A DNA stretch of 64,000 nucleotides from assembly GCA_012295275.1 (NCBI GenBank), contig CM022678.1, positions 6,138,001 to 6,202,000 on the forward strand. Direction: 5' to 3'. The DNA is from Chrysomallon squamiferum (lineage: Eukaryota > Animalia > Mollusca). Position numbers and translations under genes: made by a program. A model generated the notes under the pieces. The model did not search any database. It was not told where the DNA came from and saw only the letters and a list, made by a program, of their open reading frames with translations. Positions 7,211 to 62,770 of the stretch are shown piece by piece (the stretch's first letter is position 1; each line of letters opens with the position of its first letter).

Positions 7211-7249
7211 CTTCTAATAAGTTGACACGTCTTTAACCCACTGAAATAG

Positions 7250-9573: not shown

Positions 9574-9609
<36 letters not shown>

Positions 9610-9678
9610 TTCACATCTTTAACAGAATGGAGATTTAATGATAAGTACATTAAAAATTAAGTCACGTTAACCTCTCAC

Positions 9679-14300: not shown

Positions 14301-16378
14301 TTTCTTCATGATTACACATTAAATTTAAAATAATTTTACAATAATACATTTACATTAGAAAACTTTCTAAAAGAATTGGGTTTTAAATACAGTTCTATAG
14401 ATATTACATCTGTGCATCACTTAATAATACTAAATTTATTTTAGAAAACCTTCTCCAAGTTTTATATGTGATTAACATGCTTCAATATACATTAAAATGC
14501 TACATGATTTTCGTATTAATACATTTGAAATTATCAAGTGATTTTCAGTAACTGAATTATTTATTAACAAATTTCAATACATGATCTTTACATGAATCAA
14601 TTGGTAAAAGGAATATTTAAATTTAACATGATTTTTATGGGTGTAAATTTGATCAGAATACTTTCTGCTGTAAAATATATTAGTTTTTAACATGGGGAGA
14701 CACACCACATCAGGTTTTTAATTTATCTTCACAGTTTACTGGGCAGATTTTCTAGACTGAAAACAATAATTTAGTCTGCTAGTGAAGGACAGTAATGTTC
14801 AAATCAATGTAAGCCCAATATGATTTTGTTTGTTTTAATCTTTTTACATTATTTTTATTATTTTTTTATTTTGTTGCTTGAAATAGAATGCAATTGTAAC
14901 ATTAAATTAGAAATTATTACACACTATCATAACTTCTCATTGTTTGAAATAGAAATTAATATCATTCAATTAAATTTAAAATATCACACTTTTTCCAAAT
15001 ATGACATTTACTTTTTTCATTTTCTTTTATTTCTTTAGTTAGTTAGTTTTTTGTTAGGAATGTAAGAGCAAACATTAAAAATCAAATTTGTTTATAAATA
15101 AACATATCAAGTAAAAAATATTTATCACAAATAAAATCTCCATAATTATGCAATTATCACCACAATTAAAAGAATCAACTATCTGAGTAAGGTGAAAAAG
15201 AATTAAAACATTTTCTAATTCTAAATCCATATCTTGAAGCACTATTTCTATACAATATTATGTTGCTATTCTTTAATAGAAGCATTTTTTGGACGGTTTC
15301 TTATTAATTTGATTAATGACTTCATAACAATAACCAAGCACAAAAATGTTAAAAATCTTCAAAAATAAATGTATCAAGTAAAATATATTTATCACAAATG
15401 AAATCTCTACATTATGAGATTATAATCACAATTAAAAGAATTAATGATCACAGGAAATTGAAAAATAATAAAAGTTTTGCCTGATTTATGGTTCTAAATC
15501 TAGATAAACAGTACTATATCTAGAAAATATTATGTTGCAGAAAAATAATAGTACTTTAAACCTGAACTCTGTGTTTCTATATATATATCGCTTAAATGAT
15601 AATACATTCTAGCAGGAACATTACTGTAAAAACATTCGATATAATTACAGTTTATGTTTAACTTAATAATATGAAACAATACTGTTGTAACAAATGTTCA
15701 AATTTTACATAACTTATACAAATACTAAATTTATATTACTTTACTTTCTTCATGATTACACATTAAATTTAAAATAATTTTACAATAATACATTTACATT
15801 AGAAAACTTTCTAAAAGAATTGGGTTTTAAATACAGTTATATAGATATTACATCTGTGCATCACTTAATAATACTAAATTTATTTTAGAAAACCTTCTCC
15901 AAGTTTTATATGTGAGTAACATGCTTCAATATACATTAAAATGCTACATGATTTTCGTATTAATACATTTGAAATTATCAAGTGATTTTCAGTAACTGAA
16001 TTATTTATTAACAAATTTCAATACATGATCTTTACATGAATCAATTGGTAAAAGGAATATTTAAATTTAACATGATTTTTATGGGTGTAAATTTGATCAG
16101 AATACTTTCTGCTGTAAAATATATTAGTTTTTAACATGGGGAGACACACCACATCAGGTTTTTAATTTATCTTCAGTTTACTGGGCAGATTTTCTAGACT
16201 GAAAACAATAATTTAGTCTGCTAGTGAAGGACAGTAATGTTCAAATCAGAAATTATTATACACTATCATAACTTCTCATTGTTTGAAATAAATATTGATA
16301 TCATTCAATTAAATTTAAAATATCACACTTTTTCCAAATATGACATTTACTATTTTCATTTTCTTTTTTCTTTGTTTC

Positions 16379-16456
<78 letters not shown>

Positions 16457-16860
16457 CTGATTTATTTATTTATTTATTTATTGTTATACTAGGAATGTAA
16501 GAGAAAAAAGTTAAATTAAAAATCTTTAAAAACAAACATATAAAGTAAAAAAATATTTTAGCACAAATAAAATATCCATAATTATGCATTTATAACCATT
16601 ATTTAAAAATAATTAAATTTTGTTCTAATTTTAATACCAAATCCATAACTTGAAGCAGTATTTCTATAAAATATTATGTTTCACAGTATTAATAATACTT
16701 TAACTGAAAGTATTTGTTTTGAAAAAATCTGTTCTGTTTAAATGATACTATATGCTTGCAGTTCCATTATATAAAAACAATGGATATAGTTACAGTTTAT
16801 ATTTAACTTAATGATATGAAACAACACTGTTGTAACAAATGTATAAGAAATTGAGCAGCC
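11330..16860. repeat. Tandem array of about four near-identical ~1.46-kb AT-rich units
   Basis: Anchor CATGGGGAGA at about 11762, 13228, 14691 and 16135. Near-identical spurious ORFs at 11952 and 13418 (offset 1466). Confidence 0.9.
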
Positions 16861-17472
16861 AAAAATATATCAAATTTTTTTTCTTTTTAATTAAACCAGT
16901 TGGAAGAATGAACGTGTAAAGGCAATTCAGTGTATTTTTATATGCAACATAATAGTATCAAACAAAATGGTCTTACAATAAATATTTAGGATAATTTTGT
17001 TTTTTAAATATACCAACATTAAACATTAAACAAATTAAAAACTAATATTTGTTTAACAATATATTAATACATCATTCAATTAAATTAACAAATACCACAC
17101 TGTTTCCAAAATAAAGAAACGAAAATGAAATTAATAAATTTATTTTTATTTTATTTTCTTACTTTTTTATTTTTTCATATTATACTAGGAATTTAAGAGC
17201 AAATCCAATAAAAGCAAGTACACTTTAAAGGTATCTGGACATCATTTTTCTGTAGTCATGATATCATGACATTCAAGTAAGACTGATTTTCTCTAAGTAT
17301 TCCTCTAACAGAATAAAAAAAAAAAATAGTGCTAGGAGTCTGCAAAGTATGCCATGACATCATGACTCCAGTTGTGGATGGATGGATTACATGGCCTAAT
17401 TCAAATCTTTCTCGACGTTGTCATATTTTGTCTTCTTTTTGTATGAATAAAGGTCAATTACCATTCAGATTA

Positions 17473-18217
17473 TTATGTTTGAGACAAATAAAAAGCCATA
17501 ACCATGTCTTCATCATCATTTCCAACTAAAAGCGGTTGTTGTTGTGGAAGATTAAATGTCTCAGCAAGCTTTTCCATATGAGGCTCCACACACTCATGCA
17601 GATTGTTCAGAAATACAAATTGTTGTTCTGCAGCAGTTAGATGGTATTTCTGGCAGATTTCGCAGTCTTTAGCTGCGACTGGACATCGGCCTTCAAGTAA
17701 CTCTATGATGCAGCTAGTGAATAGACTTAAGTTTAACTCTCTGATGAAGCAGGAACGCTGATTTGGAAAAGATGATGACCACTGTTTCACTCTGATTGGG
17801 TTCTTCTTAGCATCAACAACATCACGTTCCTTGTAAAAATTCCACAGCTTTGGTAACAACACACAGTTTTCATTGTCCTTGCTTTCAATACTTTGTAAAG
17901 ACTTTGTGAAATCCTCTTCATTGAATTTTGTGAGATCAATCCCACCACTGAAGCTGCAATCCAAAATTATCATCACCGTTTCAGCGTCCAAGGACTGCAA
18001 TTGTTTCTCAATTTGTTTTGGAGTCATTCTGCTTAAAAGACCTCCTAAACACAATGATGACTGATCGTAATGTCCAGAGAAATACAGAAGGAAAAATGGA
18101 TGTTCTTTTTCACGTATTTGCTGAGCAAGTTCACTGAATGCTTTTACTACTCTTTCACACATAAAGTAATCAATGACTGCTGGTTGTGATGTTTTTATCA
18201 TTGTAATATTTTCTTCT
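17473..18217 (-). CDS. Copy 2 terminal exon, caspase-like core with Cys->Ser
   Basis: ORF 17473..18201; acceptor at 18218-18219. Confidence 0.85.
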
Positions 18218-19186
18218 CTAAAAACAAAAGGAATAAGTAAACAAAATGTTCATTTTTTTCTTTCTTTTTTTAAACATGTATTATATAATAAAAAATAAAA
18301 ATTCGGATTTCACAAAAAATAACTATTTCTATTACTACAATCATAGCAAAAATTAAATATATAAATAATACATATTTATTTTCATATTAATTTTTTTATT
18401 AAAAACACAAATGACTAAAGACTAAAAAAATGGTTACTAAAGACAAAACAAAATAAATAAAACAATACTTTCACACATACACACACCCACAGACATATTT
18501 AAAGGCTTCAAAATAGATGAGTTAACTTTGAAATTTATCCCTTTTTGTAATAAATTCATTTAAAAGAAAAGAAAAAGTGATTAAAGCAAACACACACACA
18601 CACACGTACACATACATTTTACCTGATTGCAACGATATTAAGATCTTGCAGTTTCTCTTTCATTACATTTGTATCAATAATAAATATTTGATCAGAGTGT
18701 TTTATATTATAATAATAATAATAATAATGTCAAATCAAAATAAATAAAATAATACTTTCACACACACACGCACTCAAAATAGGTGAGTTAAATTTTAATG
18801 TGATCCTTTTTTGTGGTAAATTCTTTTAAAAACAAAAAGGAGAAACGATTAAAGCAGCCACACCCATACACACACCCACACACATTTTACCTTATTCCAA
18901 CGATATCAGGATCTTGTAGTGTCTCTTTCATTGTTATGGCATCATTAATATATATTTCAGCTACTTCTTTTCTACTATTATAGCCTGCGATGATAAGGGC
19001 AAAACAGTTTTCATGACCTGAGTTCAAATAAAAGAACAAATGTTTAAGTGTACACACGGATCAACTTAACAAAACATATTGGACATAACACACAGAAGTA
19101 AACACATATTATTTAGTTCAATGTGGTGTTTGGTTTTTGAAAAAGAAATTTATTTTGAAGTTTTATTATTATTTTTTTATTAAAAT

Positions 19187-23481: not shown

Positions 23482-24240
23482 CAGTGCACCAACTTACGAA
23501 TTTTCCGTGTTCGAGCAGACGTCAAGTTAATTTTTTTTTTCTTTGCCTTACGAGGCAAAACGGTAGCTGCGCAACGAAGAACATAAAATCCGGCCAGCAT
23601 CCGGCATCTCACTCGTTTACTTCATGATTACCTCGCCTTGGAAGCATCTCTGTTGTGTTGTGGTCGCATTTAGTGCAGTATTTTGCAAAAAAATATTTCT
23701 GACCATGGATCCTAAGAAAGTGAGTTCAAAGGACAATGCTGAGAAAAAGGTGTCCATTGATTTAAAGGATGAAATCATAGAAAAACATGAGCGTGCTGTG
23801 GGTGTCGTCGACATGGCTAGGCAGTATGAGAGTAATACTTCTACGACATGTACCATACGGAAGCAGAAGGAGTCGATAAAGGCTATAATTCCAGTCAAAG
23901 GCATTAAACAAAATTCAAAGCTGGAGACCTCTGTCTATGAAAAAAATGGAGAAGCAGCTCGCAGGGGAGGTACCATCTGCGAGAAGGCAAGATCAGTTTG
24001 AGTTCATTTGCTGCAATAGGCCGCAGGAACTTCAATGGACGAGGTGCTGGAAGAATTGTTTAAAGCCAGTCGGGACTGGTTCGACAATTCTAGGAGGACT
24101 GACATTCACTCCGTCATCAGGAACGGTGAGAGAGCGAGCTCGCATCTGAAGGCAGCTCAGGATTATCTGAAAACGTTTGCCGAAATCATAAGAGCCGAAA
24201 GATATGCCAAGAAAGATAGGGTAAACTTCACACTGTGCGG
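23482..24240 (+). mobile_element. Tigger-type transposon fragment, duplicated together with the gene (copy of 6416-7210)
   Basis: ORFs 23624-24001 and 24035-24244 are near-identical to those in copy 1. Starts with a TIR-like CAGTGCACCAACTTACGAA. Confidence 0.85.
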
Positions 24241-25110: not shown

Positions 25111-25483
25111 TTTTTAATGAAAAATAAAGAATAATCTTCTCTGTGAACAAATTTAATAAGTATTCACCGTACTTGCAAAGATGAAAACTTCCGGGTTAAC
25201 TAAACCTTTACGAGGACAGACATTATAATGATTATTCATTTACTTATAAAGAAGAAAATACTGGATTTATCTGATTTTTAAGACGTCTTCCCACATAAAA
25301 ATAAAACAAAACGTTGAAGAGTTTTCTCCATTTCTCTTTATCATTTAAAACTGCTGAAATTATAGTCAACTTTCATCCCTAGAGTCTTTTTAATTTTACT
25401 TAAGTTTTTTTAAATTATTATTGTTATTATTATTATATAATATATTCTGATTAAATAAGGTAATGATTACACACACACACAAC

Positions 25484-28400
25484 AGAAATTATTATACACT
25501 ATCATGACTTCTCATTGTTTGAAATAAAAATTAATAGCATTCAATTACATTTAAAATATCACTCTTTTTTCCAATTATGACATTTACTATTTTCATTTTC
25601 TTTTCTTTCTTTATTTAGTTAGATTTTTGTCATACTAGGAATGTAAATTAAAAATAAAAAATCTTTATAAATAAACATATCAAGTAAAAAATATTTATCA
25701 CAAATAAAATCTCCATAATTATGCAATTATCACCACAATTAAAAGAATCAACTATCTGAGTAAAGTGAAAAAGAATTAAAACATTTTCTAATTCTAAATC
25801 CATATCTTGAAGCACTATTTCCATACAATATTTTGTTGCTATACTTTAATAAAAAAAAAGTTTTGGACACTTTCTTATTAATTAGATTAATGACTTCATA
25901 ACAATAACAAAGCACAAAAATGTTAAAAATCTTCAAAAATAAATGTATCCAGGAAAATATATTCTCACAAATAAAATCTCTATATTATGAGATTATAATC
26001 ACAATTAAAAGAATTAATGAACACAGCAAAGTGAAAAATAATAAAAGTCATGCCTGATTTATTGTTCTAAATCTAGATGAAGAAGTACTATTTTTATAAA
26101 ATATCATGTTGCAGAAAAATAATAGTACTTTAAACCTGAACTTTATGTTTCTATATATATATATGATAATATATTCTAGAGGTTCCATTACTATAAAAAA
26201 AATCGATATAATTACAGTTTATGTTTGACTTAATGATATGACAATACTGTTTTAACAAATGTCTTGTTTAAGAATTCATAAAGGTTTAGCATATTTCAAC
26301 ACACATTGAAATTTTACTTAACTTACACAAATACTAAATTTATATTACTTTACTTTCTTCATTACTACACATTAAATTTAAAATAATTTTACAAAAATAC
26401 ATTTACATTAGAAAACCTTCTGAAAGAATGGGCTTTTAAATAAACTTCTATAGATATTAAAACTGTGCATCACTTTGTAATAATAAATTTATATTAGAAA
26501 ACTTTCCCCACGATTAAATACGTCATTGACATTGTTTTATATACATTAGCAGTTTACATGAGTCTCCTAATAATATATTTGAATGTGCGAAGATTTTCAG
26601 CAAAAACAATTATTTATTAAAAAGCCTTCAATACATGATCTTTCCATGAATCAATTGGAAAAAGGAATATTTAAATTTAACATAATTGGTATGGGTGTAA
26701 ATTTGATCAGAATACTTTCTGCTATAAAATATATTAGTTTTTAACATGGGGAGACACATCACATCAGTTTTTTAATTTATCTTCACACTTTACAGGGCAG
26801 ATTTTCTAGACTGAAAACAATAATTTAGTCTGCAAGTGAAGGACAATAATGTTCAAATCAATGTAAACCCAATATGATTTTGTTTTTTTAATCTTTTTAC
26901 ATTTTTCTTCTTATTATTTTTGTATTTTGTTGCTTGAAATAGAATGCAACTGTAGCATTAAATTAGAAATTATTATACACTATGATAACTTCTCATTGTT
27001 TGAAATAAAAATTAATAGCATTCAATTACATTTAAAATATCACACTTTTTTCCAATTATGACATTTACTATTTTCATTTTCTTTTCTTTCTTTATTTAGT
27101 TAGTTTTTTGTCATGGAATGTAAGAGCAAAACATTAAAAATAAAAATCTTTAAAAATAAACATATCAAGTAAAAATATTGATCAGAAATAAAATTTCCAT
27201 AATTATGCAATTATAACCACAATTAAAAGAATTAACTATCTGAGTAAAGTGAAAAATAATTTAAAATTCTTCTAATTCTAAATCCATATCTTGAAGCACT
27301 ATTTGTATACAATATTATGCTGGTACACTTTAATAAAAACATTTTTGGGACACTTTCTTATTAATTAGATTAATGACTTCATAACAATAACAAAGCACAA
27401 CAATGATAAAAATCATCAAAAATAAATGTATCAAGTAAAATATATTCTCACAAATAAAATCTCTATATTATGAGATTTTATTCACAATTAAAAGAATTAA
27501 TGACCACAGCAAAGTGAAAAATAATAAAAGTCATGCCTGATTTATGGTTCTAAATCTAGATGAAGAAGTACTATTTTTATAAAATATCATGTTGCAGAAA
27601 AATAATAGTACTCTAAACCTGAACTCTATTTTTATATATATATAGTTTAAATGATAATATATTCTCGCAGTTCCTTTGCTGTAAAAACATTTGATATTAT
27701 TACAGTTTATGTTTAACTTAATGATATGAAACAATACTGTTGTAACAAATGTCTTATATTAGAAATTGTGCAGCAACAAATATCATATGAAAACATTTTT
27801 GTTTTAAACAAACCACTTGGAAGAAGGAATGTGTAAAGGAAGTGTTAAATAAAATGGTCTTATAACAAGTATTGTGATTCAAAAATAATAATAAAAATAA
27901 AATAAAAGCATAAAAAATGTTATTTAACAAAGTATTTATAGGTTTTGTTTTGCATAAGATAGACACAGGAATGAATTTTAAAGACACCTGTTTGTATTTT
28001 TGTTTTATATAATTCATGGTCAGATGTAATGATTATAAAATATTATGAAACTTAATACTTGATTAACAATATCTCAATATATTTTTTATGTTTCACATAA
28101 TCAGTAAGAAATACAACTATTGTAACATATGAAAAATATGCAATTAATTTTTGTAAAATAGTATCTTAATATATTTTTCTGTTTTACATAACGGTGTTAA
28201 CAAATATGTAATAAAGCAAGTGTCTGTAAATATAAACACTTGTTTCACAAGACATAAACACATGTTTAGTGTTTTACATTATTTGATGCTACATGTAATC
28301 ATATTTTACTTAACAGACATCAATATGTTAAGAGTGTTTGAAAGAATTTTCTTTAAGGATTCATAAACCTTTAGCATATTTCAGTATACATTCAAATTTT

Positions 28401-29184
28401 ACATAACTTATATAAATACTAAATTTATATTACTTTACTTTCTTCATGATTACACATTAAATTTTACAATAATACATTTACATTAGAAAACTTTCTAAAA
28501 GAATTGGGTTTTAAATACAGTTCTATAGATATTACATCTGTGCATCACTTAATAATACTAAATTTATTTTAGAAAACCTCCATGTTTTATATGTGATTAA
28601 CATGCTTCAATATACATTAAAATGTTACATGATTTTCATGTTATTACATTTGAATTTATCAAGAGATTTTCAGAAAAACAATTATTTATTAACAAATTTC
28701 AACATGATCTTTATATGAATCAATTGGAAAAAGGAATATTTAAATTTAACATGATTTTTATGGTTGTAAATTTGATCAGAATACTTTCTGCTGTAAAATA
28801 TATTAGTTTTTAACATGGGGAGACACATCACATCAGTTTTTTAATTTATCTTCACAGTTTACTGGGCAGATTTTCTAGACTGAAAACAATAATTTAGTCT
28901 GCAAGTGAAGGACAATAATGTTCAAATCAATGTAAACTCAATAAAACTGAGTTTTGTTTGTTTTAATCTTTTTACTTTTTTATATTATTTTATTTTTTTA
29001 TTTTGTTGCTTGAAATAGAATGCAACTGTAACAGTAAAGTAGGAATTATTATACATGATCATAACTTCTCATTGTTTCAAATAGAAATTAATATCATTCA
29101 ATTAAATTTAAAATATCACTTTTTCCAAACATGACATTTACTATTTTCATTTTCTTTTATTTCTTTGTTTCTTTATTATTATTA

Positions 29185-29231
<47 letters not shown>

Positions 29232-29600
29232 TTTTTTGTTATACTAGGAAGGTAAGAGAAAAAAATTAAAATTAAAAATCATTAGAAATAAACATATCAA
29301 GTAAAAAATATTTTAGCACAAATAAAATATCCATAATTATGCATTTATAACCACTATTTAAAAATAATTAAAAAAAATTTCTAATTTTAATACCAAATCC
29401 ATAACTTGAAGCAGTATTTCTATAAAATATTATGTTTCACAGTATTAATAATACTTTAAACTGAAAGTATTTGTTTTGAAAAAATGTGTTCTGTTTAAAT
29501 GATAATACATGCTTGCAGTTCCATTATGTAAAAACAATGGATATAGTTACAGTTTATATTTAACTTAATGATATGAAACAACACTGTTGTAACAAATGCC
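25484..29600. repeat. Further, more diverged copies of the ~1.46-kb AT-rich unit
   Basis: CATGGGGAGACACATCACATCAG anchor near 26746 and 28814; blocks align with 11700-16860. Confidence 0.8.
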
Positions 29601-30039
29601 AAAAATTTTATATCAAAACATTTTTTTGTTTAAATTAAACCAGTTGGAAGAATGTATCTGTAAAGGCACTTCAGTGTATTTTTATATTCTACATAATAGT
29701 GTTAAATAAAATAGTATTACAACAAATATTTTGTATAATTTGTTTGTTTTTTTTTTTTTTTTTTTTTTTTTTAAATATTCCAACATTAAAAATTAAAGAA
29801 ATTAAAAAATAATATTTGTTTAACAATATATGAATACATTATTGAATTAAATTAACAAATGATTCCAAAAGTAAGAAAAGAAAATGAAAATAGTAAATTT
29901 ATTTTTCTTTTCTTTTCTTACTTTTTTAATTTTTCACATTATACTAGGTATTTAAGAGCAAATCCAATTAAAGCATATCTTTCGTGATACAAAAGAAAAA
30001 AAACTAAATAAAATTTGCCTTCCAGTTGCAAGAATAACA

Positions 30040-35865: not shown

Positions 35866-36453
35866 ACTGGCAAACCAGTCCCTATTTATGCCAAAAATTT
35901 TGGTCTCAATATGTATATCACGTTTGTTAAAACTGTATATTATGGATACTGGATTGGTTTGCATCCCCAAAGGGTGTACATAGATATATATGTTTTCTTA
36001 CATTTTATTATTATTAATTTCATTAATGATATAATAACAAAAAAAAACCCATTTATTTCTGAATACAAAAACTTTAAAAATGCTCTCCAGTCTTAAGAAT
36101 AACAAAGTACAATAACAAACAAGTGCACTTTAAAGGTATCTGGACAACATCATTTTTCTGTAGTCATGATATCATGACATTCAAGTAAGACTGATTTTCT
36201 CTAAGTATTCCTCTAACAGAATAAAAAAAAAATAGTGCTAGGAGTCTGCAAAGTATGCCATGACATCATGACTCCAGTTTGGATGGATGGATTACATGGC
36301 CTAATTCAAATCTTTCTCGACGTTGTCATATTTTGTTATGAATAATGATAAGTTGCCAGAGCAATAAAATGAAAGCTTAGAAACTTACAAAATTAGTTTT
36401 CAGCCATTTATTCATATCACCACAAGTACACTTGCAACTTTTTGCATCTCAGA

Positions 36454-37197
36454 TTATTTTGTTTGAGACAAATAGAAAGCAACAGCCATATCTTCATCGT
36501 CATTCCCTTCTAACTGTGGCTGTTGTTCTTTGTTGTACTTATGAACAAGCTTCTCCACATGAGGCACCACACACTCGTGCAGATTGTTTAGAAATACAAA
36601 CTCTTCTTCTGTAGCTGTTAGGTGGAAGGTCTGGCAGTATTCACACTGGTCGTTTTTCACTGGACACTGGCCTTTAAGCAAATTTGTGATGCAGAGAGTG
36701 AATAGACTGTTTTTAACTCCCTGTGGAAGAAGGAACGCTGCTCTGTAACAGACGATGTCCACTGTTTCACAGTGGTTCTGTCCTTCTTAGCACCAAGACC
36801 ATCGCACTCGTCCTCCAGATTCCACAGCTTTGGTAACAACACATAGTTTTCATTGTCCTTGCTTTCAATACTTTGTAAAGACTTTGTGAAATCCTCATCG
36901 CTGAATGTTGTCAGATCAACCCCACCACTGTAGCAGCAATCCAGAATTATCATCACCTTTTCAGCATTCAAGGACTGTAATTCTTTCTTAAGTTGTTTTG
37001 GAGTCATTCTGTTGAAACGATCTCCGAAATGCAATGATATATGATTATTATGCCCAGTGAAATACAGAAGGAAAAATGGATGTTCTTTTTTATGTATTTG
37101 CTGATGAAATTCTCTGAATGCTTCAATTACTTTTTTATCCATAGAGTGATCACTAAGCGCTGGTTTTGATGTAGTTATCAATTTAATATTTTCTTTT
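36454..37197 (-). CDS. Copy 3 terminal exon, caspase-like core (YFTGH / ILDCCYSG), split by a frameshift
   Basis: ORFs 36657..37280 and 36454..36762 together align with ORF 17473..18201. Confidence 0.85.
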
Positions 37198-40100
37198 CTA
37201 AAAACAAATAAAGTAAGTAAACAAAAAGATAATTTTAATTTAAACATAAATAAAATAACTAATTCTGTTCCTACCATCACACCAAAAACTGAATATTTAA
37301 ATAATACATTTTCATTTTTATATTAATTTTCATTAAAAACACAAATAACTGTGTAAAAGATATGATACAAAACAAAATAAATTCAAAGCAATAAATTATC
37401 ACTTGACACTTACTGCATATTCAGCAACATTTTTCATAATCATTTTAAACAGTGATAGATGATTTGTAACAATTCCTGCTCAATACATATTTACTATCAA
37501 CAAACAGGAGACAGAAAACATTTAAAAGCATGGCACTAAATAAAGGAATTAAACAAAAGCCCAGTGGCAATAAATGCACAGAAATAAAGAATATCTTACT
37601 GATTTGTTTAGGACTTTTTGCATAAGTTTAAAAAGTATTAATTACAGCAAAAGTGTGAAACACTACTACTACTACTACTAATAATAATAAAGACATAGAA
37701 AGATAATAATTAAAAAATTTTAATAATAAAGACAAAACAAAACAAATAAAACAATACTTTCACAAACACATGGACACACATAAAGGTTTCAAAATAAGGG
37801 AGTTAAATTTGAATCTGATCCCTTTTTGTGATAAATGCATTTACAAAAAAAAAAAAAAAAAAAATGTATAAATACTTAAGCACCCACACCCACACATTTT
37901 ACCTTATTCCAATTATATTAGGATCTTGCAGTGTCTCTTTCATTAAATTTGCATCATTAATGAATATTTCAGCTGATGCTTTGTCAGAATCATGGCCTGC
38001 GATGATAAGGGCAAAACAGTTTTCATGACCTGAGTTCAAATAAAACAACAAATGTTTAAGTGTACACACTGGTCAACTTAACAAAACAAAAAGTCATTAA
38101 ACATACCACGCACCAGCAAACACATATTATTTACTTCAATGTGATGATTGTTTTTTATTTTTATTTGTTTTTTTATTTGGAAGTGGTAATTTAAATTTTT
38201 GATGAAACTGTTCTCTGTTTTGTGTGTGTGTGTGTTTTGTGAATAAAACAAAAAAAAAAAATTAACAGAATCAAGCATGCAAAATAAGTTTAATCCAATA
38301 AAATCTTTCTTTATGAACATATTATTATTATTATTATTATTACCATAATCACAACCTTTGGTGTAATCATGCTACAAGAAATGAAATTAACTGATTACAC
38401 AATAAGAAATATATAAATAATTAAATTTATGGAAACATATGAAAAGAAAAATTACACACACACACACACACACACACACTATGAATGTAACACACACACA
38501 CACACACAGAAATGTACCCATAACATAAACCAATACAACTCAACTTACCTACAGGAGAGAAGCACCGCCCATGAACTGAACAATTAAGTGGATTTTTCCA
38601 TGACTGGCACAAACAGTCAACGCAGAAACTGGGACATGCTTCATCACAATGTCTTGACAAATGTCTTATTTTTGCTATTTAAGAAATAGATTTTTAAAGC
38701 AGATTACAGTTAAATTAAATTACCATTTAGACTAGCAGAGATTTAAATATATCTAGTCAAGTATTATTAGCAAAAATTGGTTGACAGTTATAAACAAAAC
38801 AATAATTAAGAATCACACAAATCTATTAATTTAAGACGATTTGTTTCTGTTTTTTAAGTGTTTTCTTTACATGTACCAGAAGATTCAAAATCTTGCAAAG
38901 AAATATTCTTGTAAATACCAGAAATATTCTTTTTCTTACCTGCAAATCGTTTCTTACAGGAAATACACACTGAAAATAATGAAATCATTTGTAATAGATG
39001 AAATACTTCTTTAATTGCAAAGCAACTGAACAGCAAAAGTATCTTCAGAGGTGAAAAATTAGGCAGATGCTTTTGGAAAGGCTATTTAATTTAAAGGATT
39101 AGCAAAAACAGACACATACACTTTTATAAACATGAATATATATACAGTGGTGGGATTCAAAAATTTTTAAAACAGGTTCTTTTGGTAATAGTAAGTCAGC
39201 TTTGATCTGTAGGCTACTAGATGCTACATGCTACCAGGTGAAATTATTATTAATAATTTATTTTTGCCAAATAAAAAACACAGTGGTTGAAATATTATTT
39301 GACAACACTGATGAGATTGTACACGGTTAATAATCACTTAATATAAAGCAAGGAGTGACTTATGTAAGCAAATCAACACCAAGCTAGCTCTATTAACAAC
39401 TGGTTTCATTGAACTCATGAAATTCCAAGAATGGGTTTTACAAAACATTGCAAACTAGCTTAATCCTATCACTGTACATACATACAAACAGACATTCAAA
39501 GTCCACTAGCAAATATGGTCTTGTACAATTAATTTATTCATGTTATTCAAATATTAATAATCTTTGTTAGAAGAAACCAGTCCTATCCACACACATACAC
39601 ACACACACACACACACATACAGATACACACATGCTGAAGCAGACATAGTAGAATTAAAAGGAAAAAAATTAAAAAAATTCTAGTTTAGAAAACTATTTGA
39701 AATTAAACCTACGTTGTTTCTGTGTTTCAGTGTGAGAATGACAGGATATAAGTTCATCCAAATGGTCTTTTGTTTCCTTACTGCCACAGCTCACAATGAT
39801 TTTTCTTATGGAACACTCTCTCTGACATCTCTCTATGTTTCTCACAAGTCTCAAAAGTGCCTGAACAGTGGCTTTTGCGTTGCTGGACAGTACTTCTACA
39901 AATCAGACATAATAATTAAAACCAGTAATCAGCAAATCAGAGACTTTAAAATAACAAGCAGCTTTGTAAAAAAAAAAAAATGTAACAATTTTCTTGTGGT
40001 TGTTTTGTTGTGAGAGACATTTCATTGCTAATAATAAAGTATAGCAGTAATTTTATACTCAAAAGAAGACTGCCATTTTTCTTTCTGTTATGTGTACTTC

Positions 40101-43100
40101 TGATATGTTTTGTCTGAAGATAAATTTATTCACACTTGCTTGTTACCTAATTAAGTAAATTACTGGCAAAGTTAAAATTTTGCTTACTGTAGTGAAATGT
40201 AAAACTATTAGGGATGAATTATTTTTCATAAGTGATAATTATTAAAGAATCTTTAATTGTATATACCACTATGACTGAATGGTGCAATTAGTACTGAATT
40301 CACTTACCGTAGTGGCAGAACGGTACAACTACTACAGATGAATCTTTACAACCATGGACAATTTTTTCAATACTTTTTGTCAGATTCCATGCAGTTTTAT
40401 TGTTGCAAACACTGTGCAACATTTCCCCAATTCCTTGTAATCCAGAATCTGTGCTCATGACCCGGCCAGATTGAACTATTTTCTCTTTTAAAGAAAGGAA
40501 AAAAAAAAAAAAAAATAAAAAATAAATAAATAAAATAATAATATTGAAAAATAATTTGGGAAATGAGTTACACTGTATTGTTGAAAGGTAATTTGCAATA
40601 ACAGGTTATGTTATAGTACTGAATATAAATTGGATTAATGTGTTATACTGTAATGTTGAAAATAATTTAGAAAGTTGTTCATATTAAGTTGGTTAACTTT
40701 GTAATAGTAACTTACACTGTAATACTGAAAAATAATCTGGAATAATGAATTAAAATATAACACTGAAAAATAATTTGGAACAGTGACTTAAGCTGTAATA
40801 TTGAAAAATAGCAGCATGTAGCACAATATAGATAAATAACTTAAAACAGAGGCTTAATTTGTAATTTTGAAATTAACTTGGAATAGTGGCTTATACTGTA
40901 ACTTTGATAGAATATTTAGTTACTTTGGAAAGTTGTTTATACCATGTTGGTTAACTTGTAATAGTAACATATTCTGGAATACTGAAAATAATTTAGAATA
41001 GTGACATTAAATGTAATTTTGAAAATAACTTGGACTAATGACTTATTTTGTAATACTGAAACAAATCTGGAATAATGGGTTATAACATAACACTGAAAAA
41101 TATTTTGGAACAGTTACTTGTACTGTAATATTGAAAAATAATTTACATTAGCAGCATGTACCACAATATAGATAAATAATTTAAAATAGAGCCTTAATTT
41201 GTAATTTTGAAATTAACGTGAAAAAGTGGCTTATACTATAACTTTGATAGAATATTTAGTTACTTTGACAGTGATGTCCATTTCCCTTTGCATTTGTTTC
41301 ATAATATCTGTTTTAATTTATTTTTGATTGATTTTCATATTACTGCATAATCAATCAGGTGACTTTATAATAACACTTTGTATAATAGTTGCCACAAAAT
41401 TTTAATGTAGTTTTCTTTTCTTTCATTATTTTTTTTTTTTTACTAATTACCAGTATCAAACATTTAACAGACTACAGATATAATATATTATAAATGTATG
41501 TCATCATAGTGCACTTGCTGGCAGTAGACTATAAGATGCAATGAGGAAAACTGTTTCTACAGTCCTTGCTTACTGAATCTGCTATAGTCTAGTTTAGGTA
41601 ATTCAAACTATATCAGAAACAATTACAAGAAAAATAAAAATAAAAATAAAAGAAACTTACTGAATTCTGACCAGTTTTTCAGTTCTTTGCCAGTGCTTTG
41701 GAGAAGTGGGTGGACTGGCCCTTCAACAGAATAGAAATACAATCATAAAAATTCTTATTGTATTACATTTACTGTTAATTTCTTTCTTGCAAGTGGGATA
41801 ACACAGATTTTAACAAATTAGAGTAAGAAAATGTACGAAATCCACAAGAAGAAGAAAAAGAAGAAAGAAAGACCTAACAGGACATGTATAAATTTCTTGC
41901 ATTGCTCTATATCCTGACATGGAGAAAAGATGACATGCTGCTGCCAGTCCTGTCTTTATAAATTAATAACCTCTACATGTACCTTACCATGCCAAGTATG
42001 AATATACCATAATAAACCAGCTAAAAGGGAAACAGCCCAAGACTTAAACGATGATTCATCACACATCAGCACAGAATGTTTTTCACTGAGATACAGCTCT
42101 CTTCAGTGGCCAGAGCAAGTGATGGAATTTTCAATATTTAACATTTAGTTTGCAAACAATATAAGATGTAACAGGGCTTGAAATGGCCAGTTGCCAAATT
42201 GCCAGAATGTTAAAAATATTATGGGTTAGTCACTGAAAAATATGATTTGAACAACCTTTTTTTTTTTTTAATAAAATTATAACACAAGGGCCATTATTAA
42301 TAATTATATCGAAAATATTTATTTCACATAAAAGGTTTTGCTTGCATTTTATTAAACTTCAAAAATTTAATGATCAAGTACATATTTCCTTTCACTTAAA
42401 TGCTGAAATATGAATGTTTTTTTGCTTGGGCTATCAAAAACAAATTTGGGCCACTGAATTTGTTTCAAAATGAATATTTAGTGGCCCACGTTTGTTTTTT
42501 GGGTCACCGTACATTTCAGATGAGTTTTGAGCCCTGTATAAGTATGTACTAACCCATATCCAACATTTCCTGAGACCACATACAAACAATATAATCGGCT
42601 TTTATAACATGAATGGAGTCTTGAGTTATAGCCAGTTCCACTTTTTCTGATAATATTTCTTCGGATGATCTTGAAGGCTTATTTGTAATCACCTCAGTTG
42701 CATTATCTGAAATCATAGAAATATTATAAACTAACTTGAGGTATTGTCATTTGCTGATGATACTGCCTCAGCAAAAGAAATCATAGAAATATTATACCAT
42801 TAACATTTGGGGCAACTGTGTCTACATGTGTGTGTCAGAACAATAAAAATAGTACTTAACCATAAGATAACAGATGACCTGTAATTATGTTTGCTAATTT
42901 TTAAGAAGATACTGTTACAGATTTTCTATCAGTATTAATATAATTATGGCCATCACTTTGGCCATGTTTTGATAGGACTGTTCTTTGTATTTCTGAGTAT
43001 AAAAATAACCAGTTTGTGATATCAAAAGGATCTTTTAATATGAATGATGAATTTGAAGTCATTAATGTGTGCAAAACCTGTTACGAATTAAACATAAATC

Positions 43101-46052
43101 ATGATGTAGAGGAATACTAATTGAAAAAAAATGTATGTCAAAAACATTTAGTGTTTAATGGCTTATACATGTATCCTTCAAATTTATGAAAAACATTTTT
43201 TTTTTCCTGAAACCTACCTGGTGCTGAAAGATTATTTTTATTTGAATCTGCAGTATGCTCTTCAGCAGGACCAGCAGAAAATAGTTCATCTGAAGAAATG
43301 CTATTGAAATTCTCAGGATTTATTCTATTAATAAAACTGGCGTTCTTTCGAAATGGTACAGATGATCTGGTTCTGTAATTAGCTTGAAACATGTTGTTAT
43401 TTGCTGATGATGTCAACTTTTCAGCAGAATTTAAAACGTCCTGATGTAATGGAACTGAATCATCAACTGGGGTAAAAGAAATCATAGAATATTATATTAT
43501 ATTTAAACTAATATTTGGGGCAACTGTGCATACAGTGGATGTGTCATAACTATCTCAATAAAAATAGTAGTTATATATATAAAAAAAAAAAATTCCTGAA
43601 ACCTACCTGGTGCTGAAAGATTATTTTGATTTGAATCTGCAGTCTGCTCTTCAGCAGGACCAGGAGAAAATAGCTCATCTGAACGAATGTCATTCAAATT
43701 CTCAGGAAATGGAATAGACGATCCAGTTCTGTAATTAACTGGAGACATATTGTTATTTGTTGAACAGACCCTCTGTTCAAATGGTTTTAAATCTGTCTGC
43801 TGTAATGGAACTGAATCATCAACTGCGGTAAAAGAAATCATAGAGTATTATAGACTAATATTTGGGGAAACTGTGCATACAGTGGATGTGTCATAACTAT
43901 CTCAATAAAAGTAGTACTTAACAGTGAGATAACAGATGCATACTGTAATTATTTTTCTGAAGTTCTAATGCTAAAGATGATACTGTTACTGATTTTCTAT
44001 CGGTATTATTATAATTTTGGCCATCACTTTTGCCATGTTGTTTGTATTTGAGGTTATAACAATAACAATTCACAACAGCAAAAGTTTCTTTTAATATGAA
44101 TGATGAATTTGAAGTCATTAAAGGGTGCCAAACATCTGATAAAATTTAAACAAATCATATGATTATGATGTAGAGGAATGCTATACAAAAAATATTTATG
44201 TCAAAAGTATTTAGTGTTTAAAGGCTTATACATGTATCCTTTAAAATGAACGAATTTTTTTTTTTTTCTGAAACCTACCTGGTGCTGAAAGATTATTTTG
44301 ATTTGAATCTGCAGTCTGCTCTTCAGCAGGACCAGGAGAAAATAGCTCATCTGAACGAATGTCATTCAAATTATTAGGAAATTGATTAGACGATCCAGTT
44401 CTGTAATTAACTGGAGACATATTGTTATTTGTTGATGAGACCCTCTGTTCAAATGGTTTTAAATCTGTCTGCTGTAATGGAACTGAATCATCAACTGGGA
44501 TCAAGGTCATTTGCCTCTCATATGAAACATTTCCTGGCTTCAGAGTTGTATTCTCAGGTTTTGCCTCGTTTGTGACTGAAATGGAATCACCTCGCTGGCT
44601 TGCATTAGTGTCCCATGTTAACTGTGTCAGTGAATTTTCATTTTTGTCTGGTTGGTATGGTACAACAGATATGTTACTGAACTTTTTAAAACACTCTGAA
44701 CAGTAAGGTGCTGTTTGAACTGTACTGAAGTTACCACAGTCTCTTTTACAAAGTGAATTTAACAACATCTTATGTTTTTTACTAGCATTTACAAGTGTGT
44801 TGGTGTTGAAATTATTGGATTCAGAGGTTACGCGACTAGGGGACCAATTGTTGTCATAACTCTCTCCAGTGGTAGAACTAGTCAATTCAGAAGATCCTGT
44901 TTCAAATAAATATTTTTGAAAACAAACACTACACATGTTCAGCTGATCTGGGTCACCATAAAAATTACAGCCATGTGTTTTACATACCTTCTGCCTACCA
45001 GCTACTGTTAAATCTGAAAAATGATTTGGCAAAGATTGGTATTTTGCCAGCTTTTCTTTGTCGTAGCATTTACTGCATTTATTACCAAACTTAGGACTGC
45101 CAAAATAGGCACAGCCTTGGACAATGCACTGATTAGAAGAAGCAGACTCATGTATTTCAGTTTTGTTTATACATTCAAAAAGCGTGAAGCAACCAGCACA
45201 TCTTCCACCCAGAGATTCTATGCCCTTCTTCGTGCATTCCTTTTCTGAACATTTTCTGTAATTTATCTCAGAAACACTTCTTTTAATTATCTGGTTGGGT
45301 TCTGTCAGACCACTGACATTTGAAGATACTCCAAGAGTATTATTCCAAGCATTATTTTCTAGCTCAATTTCAGTGTGATTTTCTAGTTCACCGGTTTCAT
45401 CTCTGTTTTTACATGAACACCAACAACCATTAAAAATATATTCTGGAACAGATGATGAAAATCCTTGACATTTTTTGCAAAACTGGAATAGATTAGCACA
45501 CTGGTTACACAGATCTGCATTTTGTTTGGAGCCATAATTTCGACACATTTTGTTTTTACATTTACCGATTTTATAGTTTTCCGTTTCTGATTTATTACAC
45601 CTTTCACAAACACACTTGTAAGCATTTATCAAACAACATGGTATGTCTTTAGTAAATCCAAAGCAAATACTGCAAAATCCATATTTTTCATTACACTGTG
45701 AACAGAAAGGGTAATTTTTGTCATTAGTAACGTTCTGACACTCAGGATTCTTGCAGATGTTCCGAGATGGAGCATTGTTTGTGGTTTCATGTTGACTGTC
45801 ACAGCAACAGAGAGGACATGAATGTAAACTGCCTGGAAGAGGTCTTGCTACTTTTTTACATTTTGTGCAAAATCGAAAACGTTCTGAACATTCATTACAT
45901 AGACCACCTGTTTTATCATTTCCAAAATGAGAACAATTTCTGTTCAAACATTGCATACTCTGTTTCTTAAAGCAGCTGTTGCACAAGTTTTGATTTTTTG
46001 GGTTGCCATAATTCGGACATCCAGAAGAACTACAGCGACTAGGATTTTGCAT
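36454..46052 (-). CDS. Paralogue copy 3 (full length): 8x A20-type zinc finger + spacer repeats + Macro-like + RING-variant + metacaspase-like domain, ~1279 aa; 1-nt frameshift at 36710-36714
   Basis: Exons 44279-46052, 43607-43822, 43218-43466, 42554-42706, 41661-41720, 40308-40484, 39713-39895, 38940-38969, 38549-38674, 37903-38029, 36454-37197. All are GT-AG and phase-compatible. Total 3839 nt, one short of 1280 codons. Confidence 0.8.
44279..46052 (-). CDS. Large exon encoding eight A20-type zinc fingers (C-x3/4-C-x11-C-x2-C)
   Basis: 603-aa ORF, e.g. CSSSGCPNYGNPKNQNLCNSC, CIVQGCAYFGSPKFGNKCSKC, CKTHGCNFYGDPDQLNMCSVC. Donor G|gtaggt at 44277-44278; upstream acceptor at 46147-46148. Confidence 0.9.
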
Positions 46053-46458
46053 ATCAGAAGAAAAATTAATTCAACCATTACAGTTAAATAGTCTTTTTGA
46101 GAATTCCTTGGGATAGGTTCACCATTGGGGCTTTTCAGATTAATATCTGGAATAAAAAAAAACCTAAATGATATACATGCAATAATAAGTAATAAAAAAT
46201 GGGCAAGTCTAATAAACAAATAATCCTGTGAACTCTAAACAATTAACAATAAGCTTAAAGAACTAAAACAGCTAAAAAATGTATCTCATAATGTGTATGT
46301 GTGTATTAGTTCATATTACATATATTTGGAAACTTCTAAAGAAGCATGCACATTGTTTGATCCAAGCAAAACTAATTACAAATAACATAATGAATATGTA
46401 GTTATAACTGATACCTCAGTAGTTTGTGTAAATCAAAGCATAATCTATTAATGAACAA

Positions 46459-60882: not shown

Positions 60883-61497
60883 TCACACTTTTGAACTTTT
60901 AATATTTTCATCAAGTCGATGATGTTCTCCATTTTTGATTAACAATGTGGTCACTGCGTCTTTGGGTGACGACACCGAGTCTTTGGGTGACGGCACCGCG
61001 TCTTTGGGTGACGACACCGCGTCTTTGGGTGACGGCACCGAGTCTTTGGGTGACGGCACCGCGTCTTTGGGTGACGACACCGAGTGTTTGGGTGACACCG
61101 TGATATATCGGTGTTTCTTTTCGCCAGGCTGCTTCACAACGACCTCGCCAGTTAAATCTGTCTTTGCTGCTGTTGTTGAGGCCTGGTTTGCTGCTGCTGT
61201 TGTTGACCCCTGGTTTGCTGCTGCTGCTGTTGACCCCTGGTTTGCTGCTGCTGCTGCTGCTGTCGAGGACTGGTTCGCCGAGTCCACGAGCTGTTTGGAG
61301 GAGCCACTGTGCCTCCTCTGCGGTTTCTCGGCGACGTGGTGGTGTGTTTTCGCCGGAACGCTGTGCCTCCTCTTCCTCTCCTCCAGAGACGAGCAGAGGT
61401 CGCAAGAAGCGCGCGACGCTACTGGAGAATTGCCGTGCCCCCTCCTCCTCCTCGTCTCCAGAGACGACGAGGAACTGGCAGCAGCACGAGGAGCTTG

Positions 61498-61531
<34 letters not shown>

Positions 61532-62770
61532 ACATCGCCGTGCCTCTTCGCCTCCAGCGCTTTGTCGCTTCTAGAAGAACGATCGGCCGCGCCCGCCTTC
61601 GTAGCAGCCGGGCCGCTGATTTCGCCGTTCCTCTGGCCGTCCATCGTCGGGGTGACGTTGACGTGCGAGGCCAGCGTCGTCCTGCTGCTCAGAGAAATCT
61701 CCTCCGTCTTCTTGCCGCCGTCGTCGTCGTTGTCGTTGTGCGACTTGTCGGACGGCGAGCGGTACAGGACGAACGCCAGGAAGAAGAGGACGAAGGAGAG
61801 GAACTTGAGGACGAGCCCCAGCGCCAGCAGGTTGTAGCTCATGTTGCGGTTGTTGTAGAAGAAGCACGAGCCGTTGTCGTTGCAGCGCTTCTGCCAGAGT
61901 TCGCACGTCAGGTCGATCATCTTGCCGAAGAGAATCGGTCCGGGAATGGAACCTAGAAAAAAAAAAAATCAGAAACAGTCGTTCTTAATAATTTTTTTTT
62001 TTTTTTTGTTTTTGTTTTAATTATTATTATTTTTTTATTATTATTATTTTTTCTCCTTCTTCTTCTTCTTCTTCGTCTTCTTCTTCTTTTTAAATAATTT
62101 TCAACGTTCGCGCCGTCTACATTCATTTTTGTACTGGTCAAGAACTTGGTGAATTCACGAGCATGCATTCATTGTGAATATACAGTGTTTATAGTCCACC
62201 TATTCCCACACTACCATAATGGGGCTGGCTATTAGTAGTCCCAGTTTTTTTTGAATAATCAGCGATTTAAAACTTATAACTGGTAAAAATAATTGTTGTA
62301 GAAGTCATGTAGTTGTAGTTACAGTAGCAGCAGTAGTGGTGGTGGCAGTAGGAATAGCATTATATTAGAGGAGTGTAATCGTAGTAGTAGTAGTAGTAGT
62401 TCAAACAGTACAAAACTACAGTGGTAGCAGCATTATTAGCTATAGTCTTATGGTGAGGTAGTGGTGGTGGTGGTGGTAGTAGTAGTAGTAGTGGAAGTAC
62501 TACAGTAGTAGTAGTATATGCAGTCGCAATAATCTCACTAAATATGACTTGTTTTAACACCTTTAATATTAACATTAGAGGTACTTGTGATATTTATGTG
62601 AATGGAAGCATAAACCAACAGACATACTAATAATTATAATGATGTCAAAACAAACACACACACACACAGACAAACAGACTAAACTCAGTATCATACTCAT
62701 CTTACCCAGACAACGTGCTATAATCCACTGAATTCCCAATCCAACTGCTCTCTGTGTATCTGGAAGACAT
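60883..62770 (-). CDS. Organic anion transporting polypeptide (SLCO/OATP, SLCO4A1-like), last two coding exons; the gene continues beyond the window
   Basis: Exon 62706-62770 (65 nt, RCLPDTQRAVGLGIQWIIARCLG). Exon 60883-61952 (SIPGPILFGKMIDLTCELWQKRCNDNGSCFFYNN + TM12 + long tail). These are the OATP TM11-loop-TM12 signature. Confidence 0.92.
60952..61098 (-). repeat. Coding 21-bp tandem repeat x7 encoding SPK(D/H)(A/S)V(S/P/T) heptads
   Basis: Repeated tctttgggtgacg(a/g)caccg(a/c)g unit on the plus strand. Confidence 0.9.

Follow-up and report, generated by a model that had tools for sequence, protein, structure and literature searches.

Animal cell death and immune proteolysis are usually framed in terms of caspases and one paracaspase. 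A locus in the mollusc Chrysomallon squamiferum raises the question of whether animals also use a caspase-like protease of another kind. We analysed a stretch of 64,000 nucleotides, referred to throughout as the window (GenBank assembly GCA_012295275.1, contig CM022678.1, positions 6,138,001 to 6,202,000, forward strand). A sequence-only reading had placed a metacaspase or bacterial-type caspase domain, within an intron-containing animal gene, at window positions 36454–38029. Motifs were located using a stop-to-stop open reading frame (ORF) scan and a six-frame motif scan. They occur at three sites, all on the minus strand, which we call copies A, B and C. Every motif quoted in the sequence-only reading was recovered, in three copies. 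The flagged stretch belongs to copy C and its ends are a stop codon (36454) and the first base of exon 7 (38029). It comprises the final two exons of an animal gene that runs to about 1,114 codons and is both expressed and spliced.

Structure and expression of the copy C gene

The last exon was present in nine sequencing runs, two of which are RNA libraries. We compared runs over positions 36300–46300 using the RNA runs X7 and X9, from one study, and the DNA runs X1 and X2, from two studies. The GT-AG joints 37197/37903, 39895/40308, 41719/42553 and 42706/44279 were found in both RNA runs but were missing from the two DNA runs. Together with the requirement for an open frame, RNA joints define a single splice path of eight exons on the minus strand. 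The 5/6 and 6/7 exon borders were set by frame and homology, not by an RNA joint. In tblastn comparisons the gene is colinear with Haliotis asinina protein P0003.

Exon 1 (44279–46146) has a likely ATG at 46052–46050 and encodes A20 fingers, then a low-complexity tail. It is covered by an RNA contig (44460–46146) with a loose end at 46146, adjoining an AG acceptor. Exon 2 (42554–42706) holds the start of a putative macro fold (..IKADYIVCMWSQEMLDM); it is supported by RNA joints 41719/42553 and 42706/44279 and by tblastn with P0003. Exon 3 (41661–41720) is delimited by the RNA joint 41719/42553 (cut +1), seen in both RNA runs, and its donor was picked by open frame. The core of the putative macro fold (..DSGLQGIGEMLH..SSVVVVPFCHY) is encoded by exon 4 (40308–40484), which corresponds to an RNA contig of the same extent joined to 39895. 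Its C-terminal part is encoded by exon 5 (39713–39895), for which the evidence is RNA joint 39895/40308 and a contig end at 39713. Both exons also appear in the gene model. Exon 6 (38549–38674) encodes a small Cys/His zinc-finger-like module (KIRHLSRHCDEACPSFCVDCLCQSWKNPLNCSVHGRCFSPV) immediately ahead of the protease domain. This exon was identified by tblastn with P0003, P0004 and P0005 and lies on the only frame-open path. Exon 7 (37903–38029) has AG/GT borders, is bridged to exon 8 in RNA (37197/37903) and encodes the first strand and helix of the protease, β1 and α1 (HENCFALIIAG...IFINDANLMKETLQDPNIIGI). Exon 8 (36454–37197), the last, spans β2 to the C-terminus. Its coding part is 37197–36457 and its stop codon 36454–36456; it is supported by the same RNA joint and by tblastn with P0003.

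Of the seven introns, the last is phase 2 and the other six are phase 1. The zinc-finger exon is symmetric (1-1). Hence, shuffling of the exons as a cassette would be possible. Intron 1 contains two further, diverged copies of the exon 1 low-complexity tail (43138–43847, minus strand). These are ORFs at 43138–43491 and 43503–43847, with 58–88% protein identity to the end of exon 1.

In the window, the copy C frame is broken by a one-base deletion after "REL", relative to copies A and B (36711/36712). However, all covering contigs from X7, X9, X1 and X2 (4/4 runs) contain an extra A behind 36711, in a T-run. On the minus strand the corrected frame reads ..RELNNSLFT.., compared to RELNLSLFT in copy B. 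Since the frame-restoring base is present in every run, the frameshift is likely to be an assembly error or a rare allele and not a property of the gene.

Fold, catalytic residues and relatives of the protease domain

The β1–α1 motif of copy C is HENCFALIIAGHDSDKASAEIFINDANLMKETLQDPNIIGI (38027–37905), and the α1 aspartate codon is at 37955–37953 in exon 7. The remaining catalytic motifs are in exon 8. Briefly, these are FLLYFTGH (37073–37050), which ends in the catalytic His codon (37052–37050), and IILDCCYSG (36950–36924), which includes the D-x-C Asp (36941–36939) and the Cys (36935–36933). The same exon carries a p10-like QWTSS..QRS..SLFT segment (VKQWTSSVTEQRS...SLFTLCITNLL) and a CPVx4CxxC segment (CPVKNDQCEYC), both within 37197–36457, and a terminal QQPQL (36525–36511). 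The CPV..C-x2-C insert had been pointed out in the sequence-only reading. Directly after the catalytic His, copy A has S, copy B has Y and copy C has N, as that reading had also remarked.

We looked for relatives with phmmer, exhaustively, among 1.84 billion representatives (E≤1e-3), with the copy B last exon as query. There were 17 matches, the best with E 1.7e-38. Eleven are named and all of these are from animals: Haliotis asinina, H. rufescens, H. rubra, Gigantopelta aegis, Owenia fusiformis, Saccoglossus kowalevskii and Ptychodera flava. The other six are unnamed. All of the relatives are annotated "uncharacterized protein". The family thus spans gastropods, an annelid and hemichordates, and homologues lie in chromosome-scale contigs of several animals. 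The Pfam model Peptidase_C14 matches 16 of 17 members at E≤0.01, the first member scoring 28.7 bits against a cut-off of 21.4. These Pfam matches, with the best phmmer E value, rule out a chance occurrence of the motifs.

We aligned the domain in 17 rows (alignment A3). Rows are 18–36% identical across molluscs, hemichordates and unnamed members. The catalytic His is present in 17/17 rows and the Cys in 16/17, the exception being copy B, which has Ser. The D-x-C Asp, on loop L4, is found in 16/17 rows (P0006 has Asn) and the α1 "ND" Asp in all eight rows that hold that region. Conservation of the NDA and D-x-C aspartates, to which the sequence-only reading had drawn attention, is thereby borne out. 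Most rows have a Lys or Arg about nine residues before a V-x-Q-W strand (β5). At the C-terminus, family members are extended by a Cys-rich, helical segment that finishes in Q-x-P. Four ORF-only members from unnamed contigs (P0007, P0008, P0009 and P0018) start just upstream of the "[RS]-x-E/D-N/K-I" strand, like the raw ORF of the window. This common start suggests that an intron before that strand may be shared by distant family members.

The sequence-only reading had proposed a structure prediction for the catalytic dyad. We used AlphaFold2 with alignment A3 to model the Haliotis asinina protease domain, which is 36% identical to that of the window (pLDDT, the predicted local distance difference test, 82.8; pTM, the predicted template modelling score, 0.84). 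In the model, His145 is two residues after strand 137–143 (β3) and Cys184 is two residues after strand 176–182 (β4). The pair is hence predicted at the C-terminal ends of β3 and β4. A disordered stretch of about 45 residues (191–235) separates the p20-like and p10-like halves. We compared the model with 48,161 chains using VIA-align. Legumain (Z 20.5, 197 aligned, root mean square deviation 2.3) and the type II metacaspase AtMC4 (Z 20.5, 222 aligned, 18% identity) scored highest. They were followed by AtMC9 (Z 19.6), GPI8 (Z 18.8), caspase-3, caspase-9 and MALT1 (Z 17.6–17.8, MALT1 at 17.6), Yca1 (Z 16.5) and the protease-like domain of c-FLIP (Z 14.4). The Foldseek probability was 1.00. On the strength of this model, the protease domain has the clan CD caspase-hemoglobinase (Peptidase_C14) fold. 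With the spliced RNA joints, the model upholds the proposal of an intron-containing animal gene with a domain of this type.

Family profiles A2 and A3 were searched against 177,635 PDB sequences at E≤10. All ten matches to A3 were metacaspases; those to A2 were ten metacaspase chains and two GPI transamidase chains. AtMC4 was the best match, with E values of 2.2e-10 and 1.4e-8. In the hidden Markov model (HMM) alignment, the family His, D-x-C and α1 Asp fall on the His, S-D-S-C and V-N-D-V of AtMC4. In AtMC4 entry 6w8r, which carries C139A, the mutant Ala sits exactly at the second, catalytic, Cys of the family. No caspase or MALT1 chain was in either profile list at E≤10, which is an absence from these lists and not a test of unrelatedness. 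P0138, with the source label "metacaspase-1", was considered as a lead to reference metacaspases; it had no PDB match and was dropped.

In searches of 5.8 billion proteins, matches beyond the family were mostly bacterial "caspase family" proteins, with E values to about 1e-15, plus bivalve and rotifer proteins. The NCBIfam model caspase_w_EACC1 (NF047832) matches 15/17 members at E≤0.01, and the PADLOC caspase model matches 12/17. By sequence comparison, then, metacaspases and bacterial caspase proteins are closer to the domain than caspases or MALT1 are. With respect to nearness, the metacaspase or bacterial-type label of the sequence-only reading is supported by the PDB profiles and NF047832. 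It does not stand as a canonical metacaspase, given the replaced Gly, the acidic loop and the architecture discussed below.

Scores with the A3 HMM were at least 150 bits for the core family (molluscs, Owenia, hemichordates and the unnamed group), 97 for P0018 and at most 64 for bacterial, bivalve and rotifer rows. A FastTree phylogeny of 174 rows placed the window copies in a 12-row mollusc clade (support 98), with 69 of 171 forks open. In a "quick" IQ-TREE run with 66 rows, a branch with support 91 in the Shimodaira–Hasegawa approximate likelihood ratio test (SH-aLRT) had on one side every animal or unnamed row other than a rotifer pair. On the other side were 39 rows labelled bacterial or metagenomic; 24 of 63 forks were open and deep forks were weak. 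Both trees leave out isoforms and cluster members (P0020–P0033, P0155 and P0002) and rows with fewer than 100 HMM positions. The IQ-TREE set also leaves out 108 of 148 "bac_" rows, a label given to every row without an animal name, including unnamed metagenome proteins. The rotifer pair consists of P0156, from the bdelloid Rotaria sordida, and its unnamed relative P0160. In both, a VLIG-type GTPase is fused to a C14 domain, and in the tree this domain groups with bacterial rows and not with the mollusc and hemichordate family. From its position in the tree, the VLIG-fused domain may be a separate acquisition.

Upstream domains, proposed mechanism and alternative explanations

Exon 1 matches Pfam zf-A20 in six stretches (E 2.7e-18, 66 bits against a cut-off of 21.6). 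A regular expression scan found nine C-x2-4-C-x9-13-C-x2-C patterns between 46034 and 44691, six of which Pfam scores. Exons 2–5 are colinear with a region of the Haliotis proteins that has no Pfam match. We modelled this middle domain from Haliotis cracherodii P0153, using an alignment of two Haliotis rows and three window exon fragments. The alignment (A5) leaves out the exon 5 fragment, which was misplaced in A4. The resulting model, of the Haliotis equivalent and not of the window protein, has a pLDDT of 76.1. Its top Foldseek match was PARP9 macro 2 (6.7e-6), with macro matches at E values of about 1e-5. In VIA-align, macroH2A scored Z 11.9 over 166 residues and PARP9 macro 2 Z 11.8. PARP9, PARP14 and MacroD1 were at Z 11–11.8, and macro matches in general at Z 10–12 over about 160 of 190 residues. 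An ESM Atlas search gave Macro (0.85) as a weak lead. By this model, a macro fold is predicted for the Haliotis counterpart of the middle domain. The Cys pattern of exon 6 is common to hemichordate family members; by itself, the Cys/His module has no Pfam match. Death and Ig domains were not found: Pfam reports only zf-A20 on exon 1, and neither domain turned up in the Haliotis orthologues.

The combination of A20, macro and C14 domains was seen only in the copy C gene and Haliotis (6/6 matches). In other relatives, with architectures read from Pfam, the zinc-finger-plus-protease cassette sits behind different modules. These are CARD-DED-kinase, DED or TIR in Gigantopelta, kinase in Ptychodera, Saccoglossus and Dreissena, and ankyrin-kinase in Owenia. 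Such partners suggest that the cassette would serve as an effector which innate-immune or cell-death assemblies recruit. In the copy C gene, the recruiting part would be the A20 fingers and macro domain. The former may bind ubiquitin chains and the latter ADP-ribose, so gathering protease copies on a signalling scaffold. The protease domain is predicted to be catalytically active. P1 preference in clan CD is set by pocket positions on α1, L4 and L5 (PMC4357240). The S1-pocket residues of the metacaspase TbMCA2 are Asp95 (α1) and Asp211 (L4), and MALT1 has an acidic S1 pocket on α1, L4 and L5 (PMC4357240). We infer that Asp95 and Asp211 are equivalent to the aligned AtMC4 positions. The two family aspartates would thus form an acidic S1 pocket and confer basic P1 specificity, as in metacaspases and MALT1. 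Given that TbMCA2 and MALT1 also have Asp on α1 and L4, the enzyme would be expected to cut after Arg or Lys. The disordered linker, with the conserved Lys/Arg before β5, could be an autoprocessing site.

Our best explanation, to which we assign a probability of about 0.6, is as follows. The copy C gene is an expressed, spliced gene whose C-terminal C14-fold domain, with its His-Cys pair, is nearest to metacaspases and bacterial caspase-family proteins. We predict that the product works as an Arg/Lys-directed effector protease, probably activated when the other domains of the gene product recruit it. The family is probably old in bilaterians. The sequence-only reading had offered ancient retention, or horizontal transfer with later intron gain, as its origin; either would fit, although the spread over molluscs, an annelid and hemichordates, with a common upstream zinc finger, speaks for a long history within animals.

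Copies A and B are 91% identical (1–1501 versus 17473–19017) and each is about 76% identical to copy C. They carry equivalents of exons 2–8 and of the exon 1 tail, on the minus strand. The copy A last exon (1–715) runs off the window start; its His and DCCFSG are intact by motif scan and tblastn. Its exon 7 equivalent (1375–1501) is approximate and was transferred from copy C (tblastn 1529–1374; INDA 1433–1422). The zinc-finger exon equivalent is at 2088–2216. For this exon tblastn matched copies A and C only, and blastn between copies A and B skips A 1977–2477; no counterpart was found in copy B by either search. In copy B, the last exon (17473–18217) is an intact ORF in which the catalytic Cys is changed to Ser (IILDCSFSG; TGC to AGC, 17955–17953). 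Its exon 7 equivalent (18891–19017), again approximate and transferred from copy C, is supported by tblastn (19045–18890; INDA 18949–18938). Within the last intron of both copies (942–1194 and 18435–18689, minus strand), the second half of exon 7 recurs as a partial tandem duplicate (..IFINDTNVMKEKLQSPNIVGIR, then a GT donor), whereas it is single in copy C. At the expected site of the A20 exon, copy A has a degraded retroelement of the long terminal repeat type (6498–9622, plus strand), with RVT_1 and rve (integrase core) fragments in shifted frames. An unassigned 144-residue ORF common to copies A and B (23567–24001) also occupies the expected A20 exon site. Arrays of a repeat of about 1.46 kb (copies 93–96% identical) lie between the gene copies at 11438–17216 and 25481–29975. 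Copies A and B are likely decaying, partial tandem duplicates, and the odds that they are pseudogenes or relics are about even.

Several observations weigh against our best explanation. The Gly after the catalytic His, described in PMC4357240 as structurally conserved in all clan CD families, is replaced in 16/17 members; GHG occurs only in Ptychodera P0015. The last exon alone scores 17.2–19.6 bits, under the Pfam Peptidase_C14 cut-off of 21.4, because the intron takes away β1 and α1. Structure separates metacaspases from legumain, caspases and MALT1 by no more than about 3 Z units, and the model does not settle the C14 subfamily. Pfam Macro is not matched by the middle domain. Furthermore, its loop motifs look degenerate; we take GGG-type and G-x-[YF]-G loops to be tied to ADP-ribose binding. 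The A20 region of copies A and B was not found within the window, and copy B has lost the catalytic Cys. For the last exon, the Nei-Gojobori ratio of non-synonymous to synonymous substitution rates (dN/dS) is 0.63–0.77 for copy C versus A or B. It is 1.62 for A versus B, with 7.7 synonymous and 49.3 non-synonymous differences. Such high values mean that constraint is weak or selection diversifying; for copies A and B they fit relaxed constraint. Finally, of the phylogeny with metacaspases, paracaspases, orthocaspases and bacterial proteins that the sequence-only reading had proposed, our trees cover only animal-family rows and bacterial or metagenome rows. In these trees the animal rows, other than the rotifer pair, stand apart.

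How do other explanations fare? The fold could be kept as a scaffold or substrate-binding module in a pseudo-protease, like c-FLIP or the catalytically dispensable scaffolding of MALT1. The missing clan-wide Gly (PMC4357240), the Ser of copy B, the Asn of P0006, the high dN/dS and the presence of c-FLIP among the structural matches all fit this idea. We nevertheless regard it as unlikely, as His is invariant, and Cys and both pocket aspartates nearly or fully so, among members that are only 18–36% identical. In addition, known pseudo-orthocaspases substitute the His and Cys themselves (PMC6426788). In a further alternative, all three copies would be decaying pseudogenes whose caspase-like ORFs are no more than relics. 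As regards copies A and B, this agrees with the transposon at the A20 site, with the absence of a zinc-finger exon and Cys from copy B, and with an A-B dN/dS that is compatible with neutrality. The frameshift of copy C in the window points the same way. However, that frameshift is absent from 4/4 runs, four GT-AG introns are spliced in two RNA runs and all eight exons are open. The frame-restoring base and spliced transcript lead us to reject copy C as a pseudogene, and the chance that the whole cluster is decaying is very small.

Fast evolution could instead have given a metacaspase-like look to a true caspase, or to a type 1 paracaspase, that has diverged strongly. Some relatives have CARD and DED prodomains, as initiator caspases do, and true caspases of lophotrochozoans can have kinase, TIR or ankyrin prodomains (PMC11463336). 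The structural scores of caspases and MALT1 are also only about 3 Z units under the top. Nonetheless, the family has D-x-C-[YF]-S-G in place of QACxG, its α1 and L4 pocket positions are acidic and not basic, and death and Ig domains are missing. The significant sequence matches are to metacaspases and bacterial models. We therefore give this possibility a small chance. Recent transfer from bacteria, or bacterial contamination of the assembly, would account for the nearest non-animal matches being bacterial caspase-family proteins, and for the rotifer VLIG-fused members among bacterial rows. It is scarcely credible for the copy C gene, which has eight exons, has GT-AG introns spliced in RNA and is fused to animal-type domains. 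The gene is also AT-rich like its flanks (most 2-kb bins of the AT-rich window have a GC content of 20–31%). The best bacterial rows reach at most 64 bits, compared to at least 150 within the family, and homologues are on chromosome-scale animal contigs. Together, these contradict recent transfer or contamination; a much older transfer, into early bilaterians, may nonetheless have taken place.

Beyond our best explanation, a broader proposal seems to us somewhat short of an even bet. Ancestral bilaterians may have had a third caspase-like immune branch, beside caspases and MALT1-type paracaspases, that was metacaspase- or orthocaspase-like, Arg/Lys-specific and equipped with its own zinc finger. 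It would act behind CARD, DED, TIR, kinase, ankyrin or A20-plus-macro sensors. Molluscs, annelids and hemichordates would have retained it, whereas vertebrates and ecdysozoans would have lost it. Here, it would couple ubiquitin and ADP-ribose reading to proteolysis. If true, this is a new effector class for invertebrate innate immunity, wired to death-fold, TIR, kinase and ubiquitin-binding modules. It would also provide a direct handle on the recruitment of prokaryote-type caspase homologues into animal signalling. The family is open to experiment, as one soluble domain of about 290 residues with clear catalytic mutants and simple fluorogenic substrates.

Published work bears on this in several ways. 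The sequence-only reading had described metacaspases as absent from animals. A 2023 paper does state that metacaspases were lost in animals (PMC10565124). However, Staal et al. (2018) note that paracaspases have been regarded as a metacaspase subclass and that early-branching animals have type 2 paracaspases (PMC5978004). The description hence needs a caveat. In bivalve caspase surveys, "metacaspase-like" denotes solely caspases that lack a p10 and that return caspases on re-BLAST (PMC7836458, PMC10967218), and Kaur et al. (2021) discuss caspase-like effectors in general terms (PMC8195603). No description of the family was found in the literature searched, which is an absence there and not proof of unpublished status. 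We conclude that this is likely a small invertebrate family with immune-type architectures, undescribed as far as that literature goes. The observation made in the sequence-only reading is therefore confirmed and its interpretation partly supported.

Elsewhere in the window, positions 60883–61968 (minus strand) hold the final exon of a transporter of the OATP/SLCO type (Pfam OATP 1.6e-13 at the start). A long Ala/Ser/Pro-rich low-complexity tail follows, in a GC-rich island (42% GC). A short-period tandem repeat extends from 63184 to the window end at 64000 and has open frames on both strands (TFTSIV.. and VKVTID..).

Comparison with known systems

The protein encoded by the copy C gene comprises A20 fingers, a putative macro domain, a Cys/His finger, p20-linker-p10 and a C-terminal extension. 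Type II metacaspases AtMC4 and AtMC9 (MEROPS C14B) are its closest counterparts in several respects. AtMC4 is the best PDB sequence match and the two are top, or tied, structurally (Z 20.5 and 19.6 over 222–223 residues). Like the family, they have aligned His and Cys, Asp on α1 and two residues before the Cys, and a single chain with a long, disordered p20-p10 linker. In contrast to metacaspases, the residue after the His is not Gly and the Cys motif is C-[YF]-S-G, not C-H-S-G. An acidic loop of about 20 residues after the His in AtMC4 aligns to gaps in the family, and its "ITDDDF" aligns to non-acidic residues. We take these acidic-loop and "ITDDDF" residues of AtMC4 to be Ca2+ ligands. An acidic residue at Cys+6 is kept in 10/17 family rows. 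Relative to AtMC4 and AtMC9, the family adds a Cys-rich C-terminal extension and an upstream zinc finger, and its host is an animal. None of the metacaspase types fits. Type I has a Pro-rich/LSD1 zinc-finger prodomain, type II has a long linker and no prodomain, and type III has its p10 before its p20; only the long linker resembles type II. Because the Gly after His, the acidic loop, the His of C-H-S-G and a type I, II or III architecture are missing, and a Cys-rich extension is added, we file the domain under family C14, as a non-caspase and not as a metacaspase.

The sequence-only reading had set the domain apart from QACRG caspases and from MALT1. This distinction holds, in view of the D-x-C-[YF]-S-G motif, the lack of death and Ig domains and the PDB profile lists. 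Initiator caspases (caspase-8 and caspase-9) and lophotrochozoan caspases resemble the family in that CARD, DED, TIR, kinase or ankyrin modules also front the protease of family relatives. A survey lists caspases with unusual prodomains from annelids, flatworms and brachiopods (PMC11463336). Those proteins lie inside caspase clades, and the survey mentions metacaspases and paracaspases zero times. The family differs from caspases (C14A) in having I-L-D-x-C-[YF]-S-G instead of QACxG, and Asp on α1 and L4 instead of a basic Arg/Gln/Arg S1 pocket.

MALT1, like the family, is an animal non-caspase C14 protease and a structural match (Z 17.6). MALT1 acts in ubiquitin-rich immune signalosomes. By contrast, the family is without a death domain or Ig domains and has a different motif around the Cys, and MALT1 was not in the sequence-profile lists. 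Proteins of the A20/TNFAIP3 and PARP9/PARP14 types share A20 fingers and a putative macro fold with the copy C gene, which has no OTU and no PARP catalytic domain.

The strongest non-animal matches are bacterial caspase-family proteins and orthocaspases (NF047832, and cyanobacterial forms fused to STAND or WD40 domains). The family scores far below the cut-off of the bacterial model (the first member at 40 bits versus 140), occupies its own side of the tree, and has introns and animal-type partner domains. In both groups, however, the protease is fused to sensor or adaptor modules.

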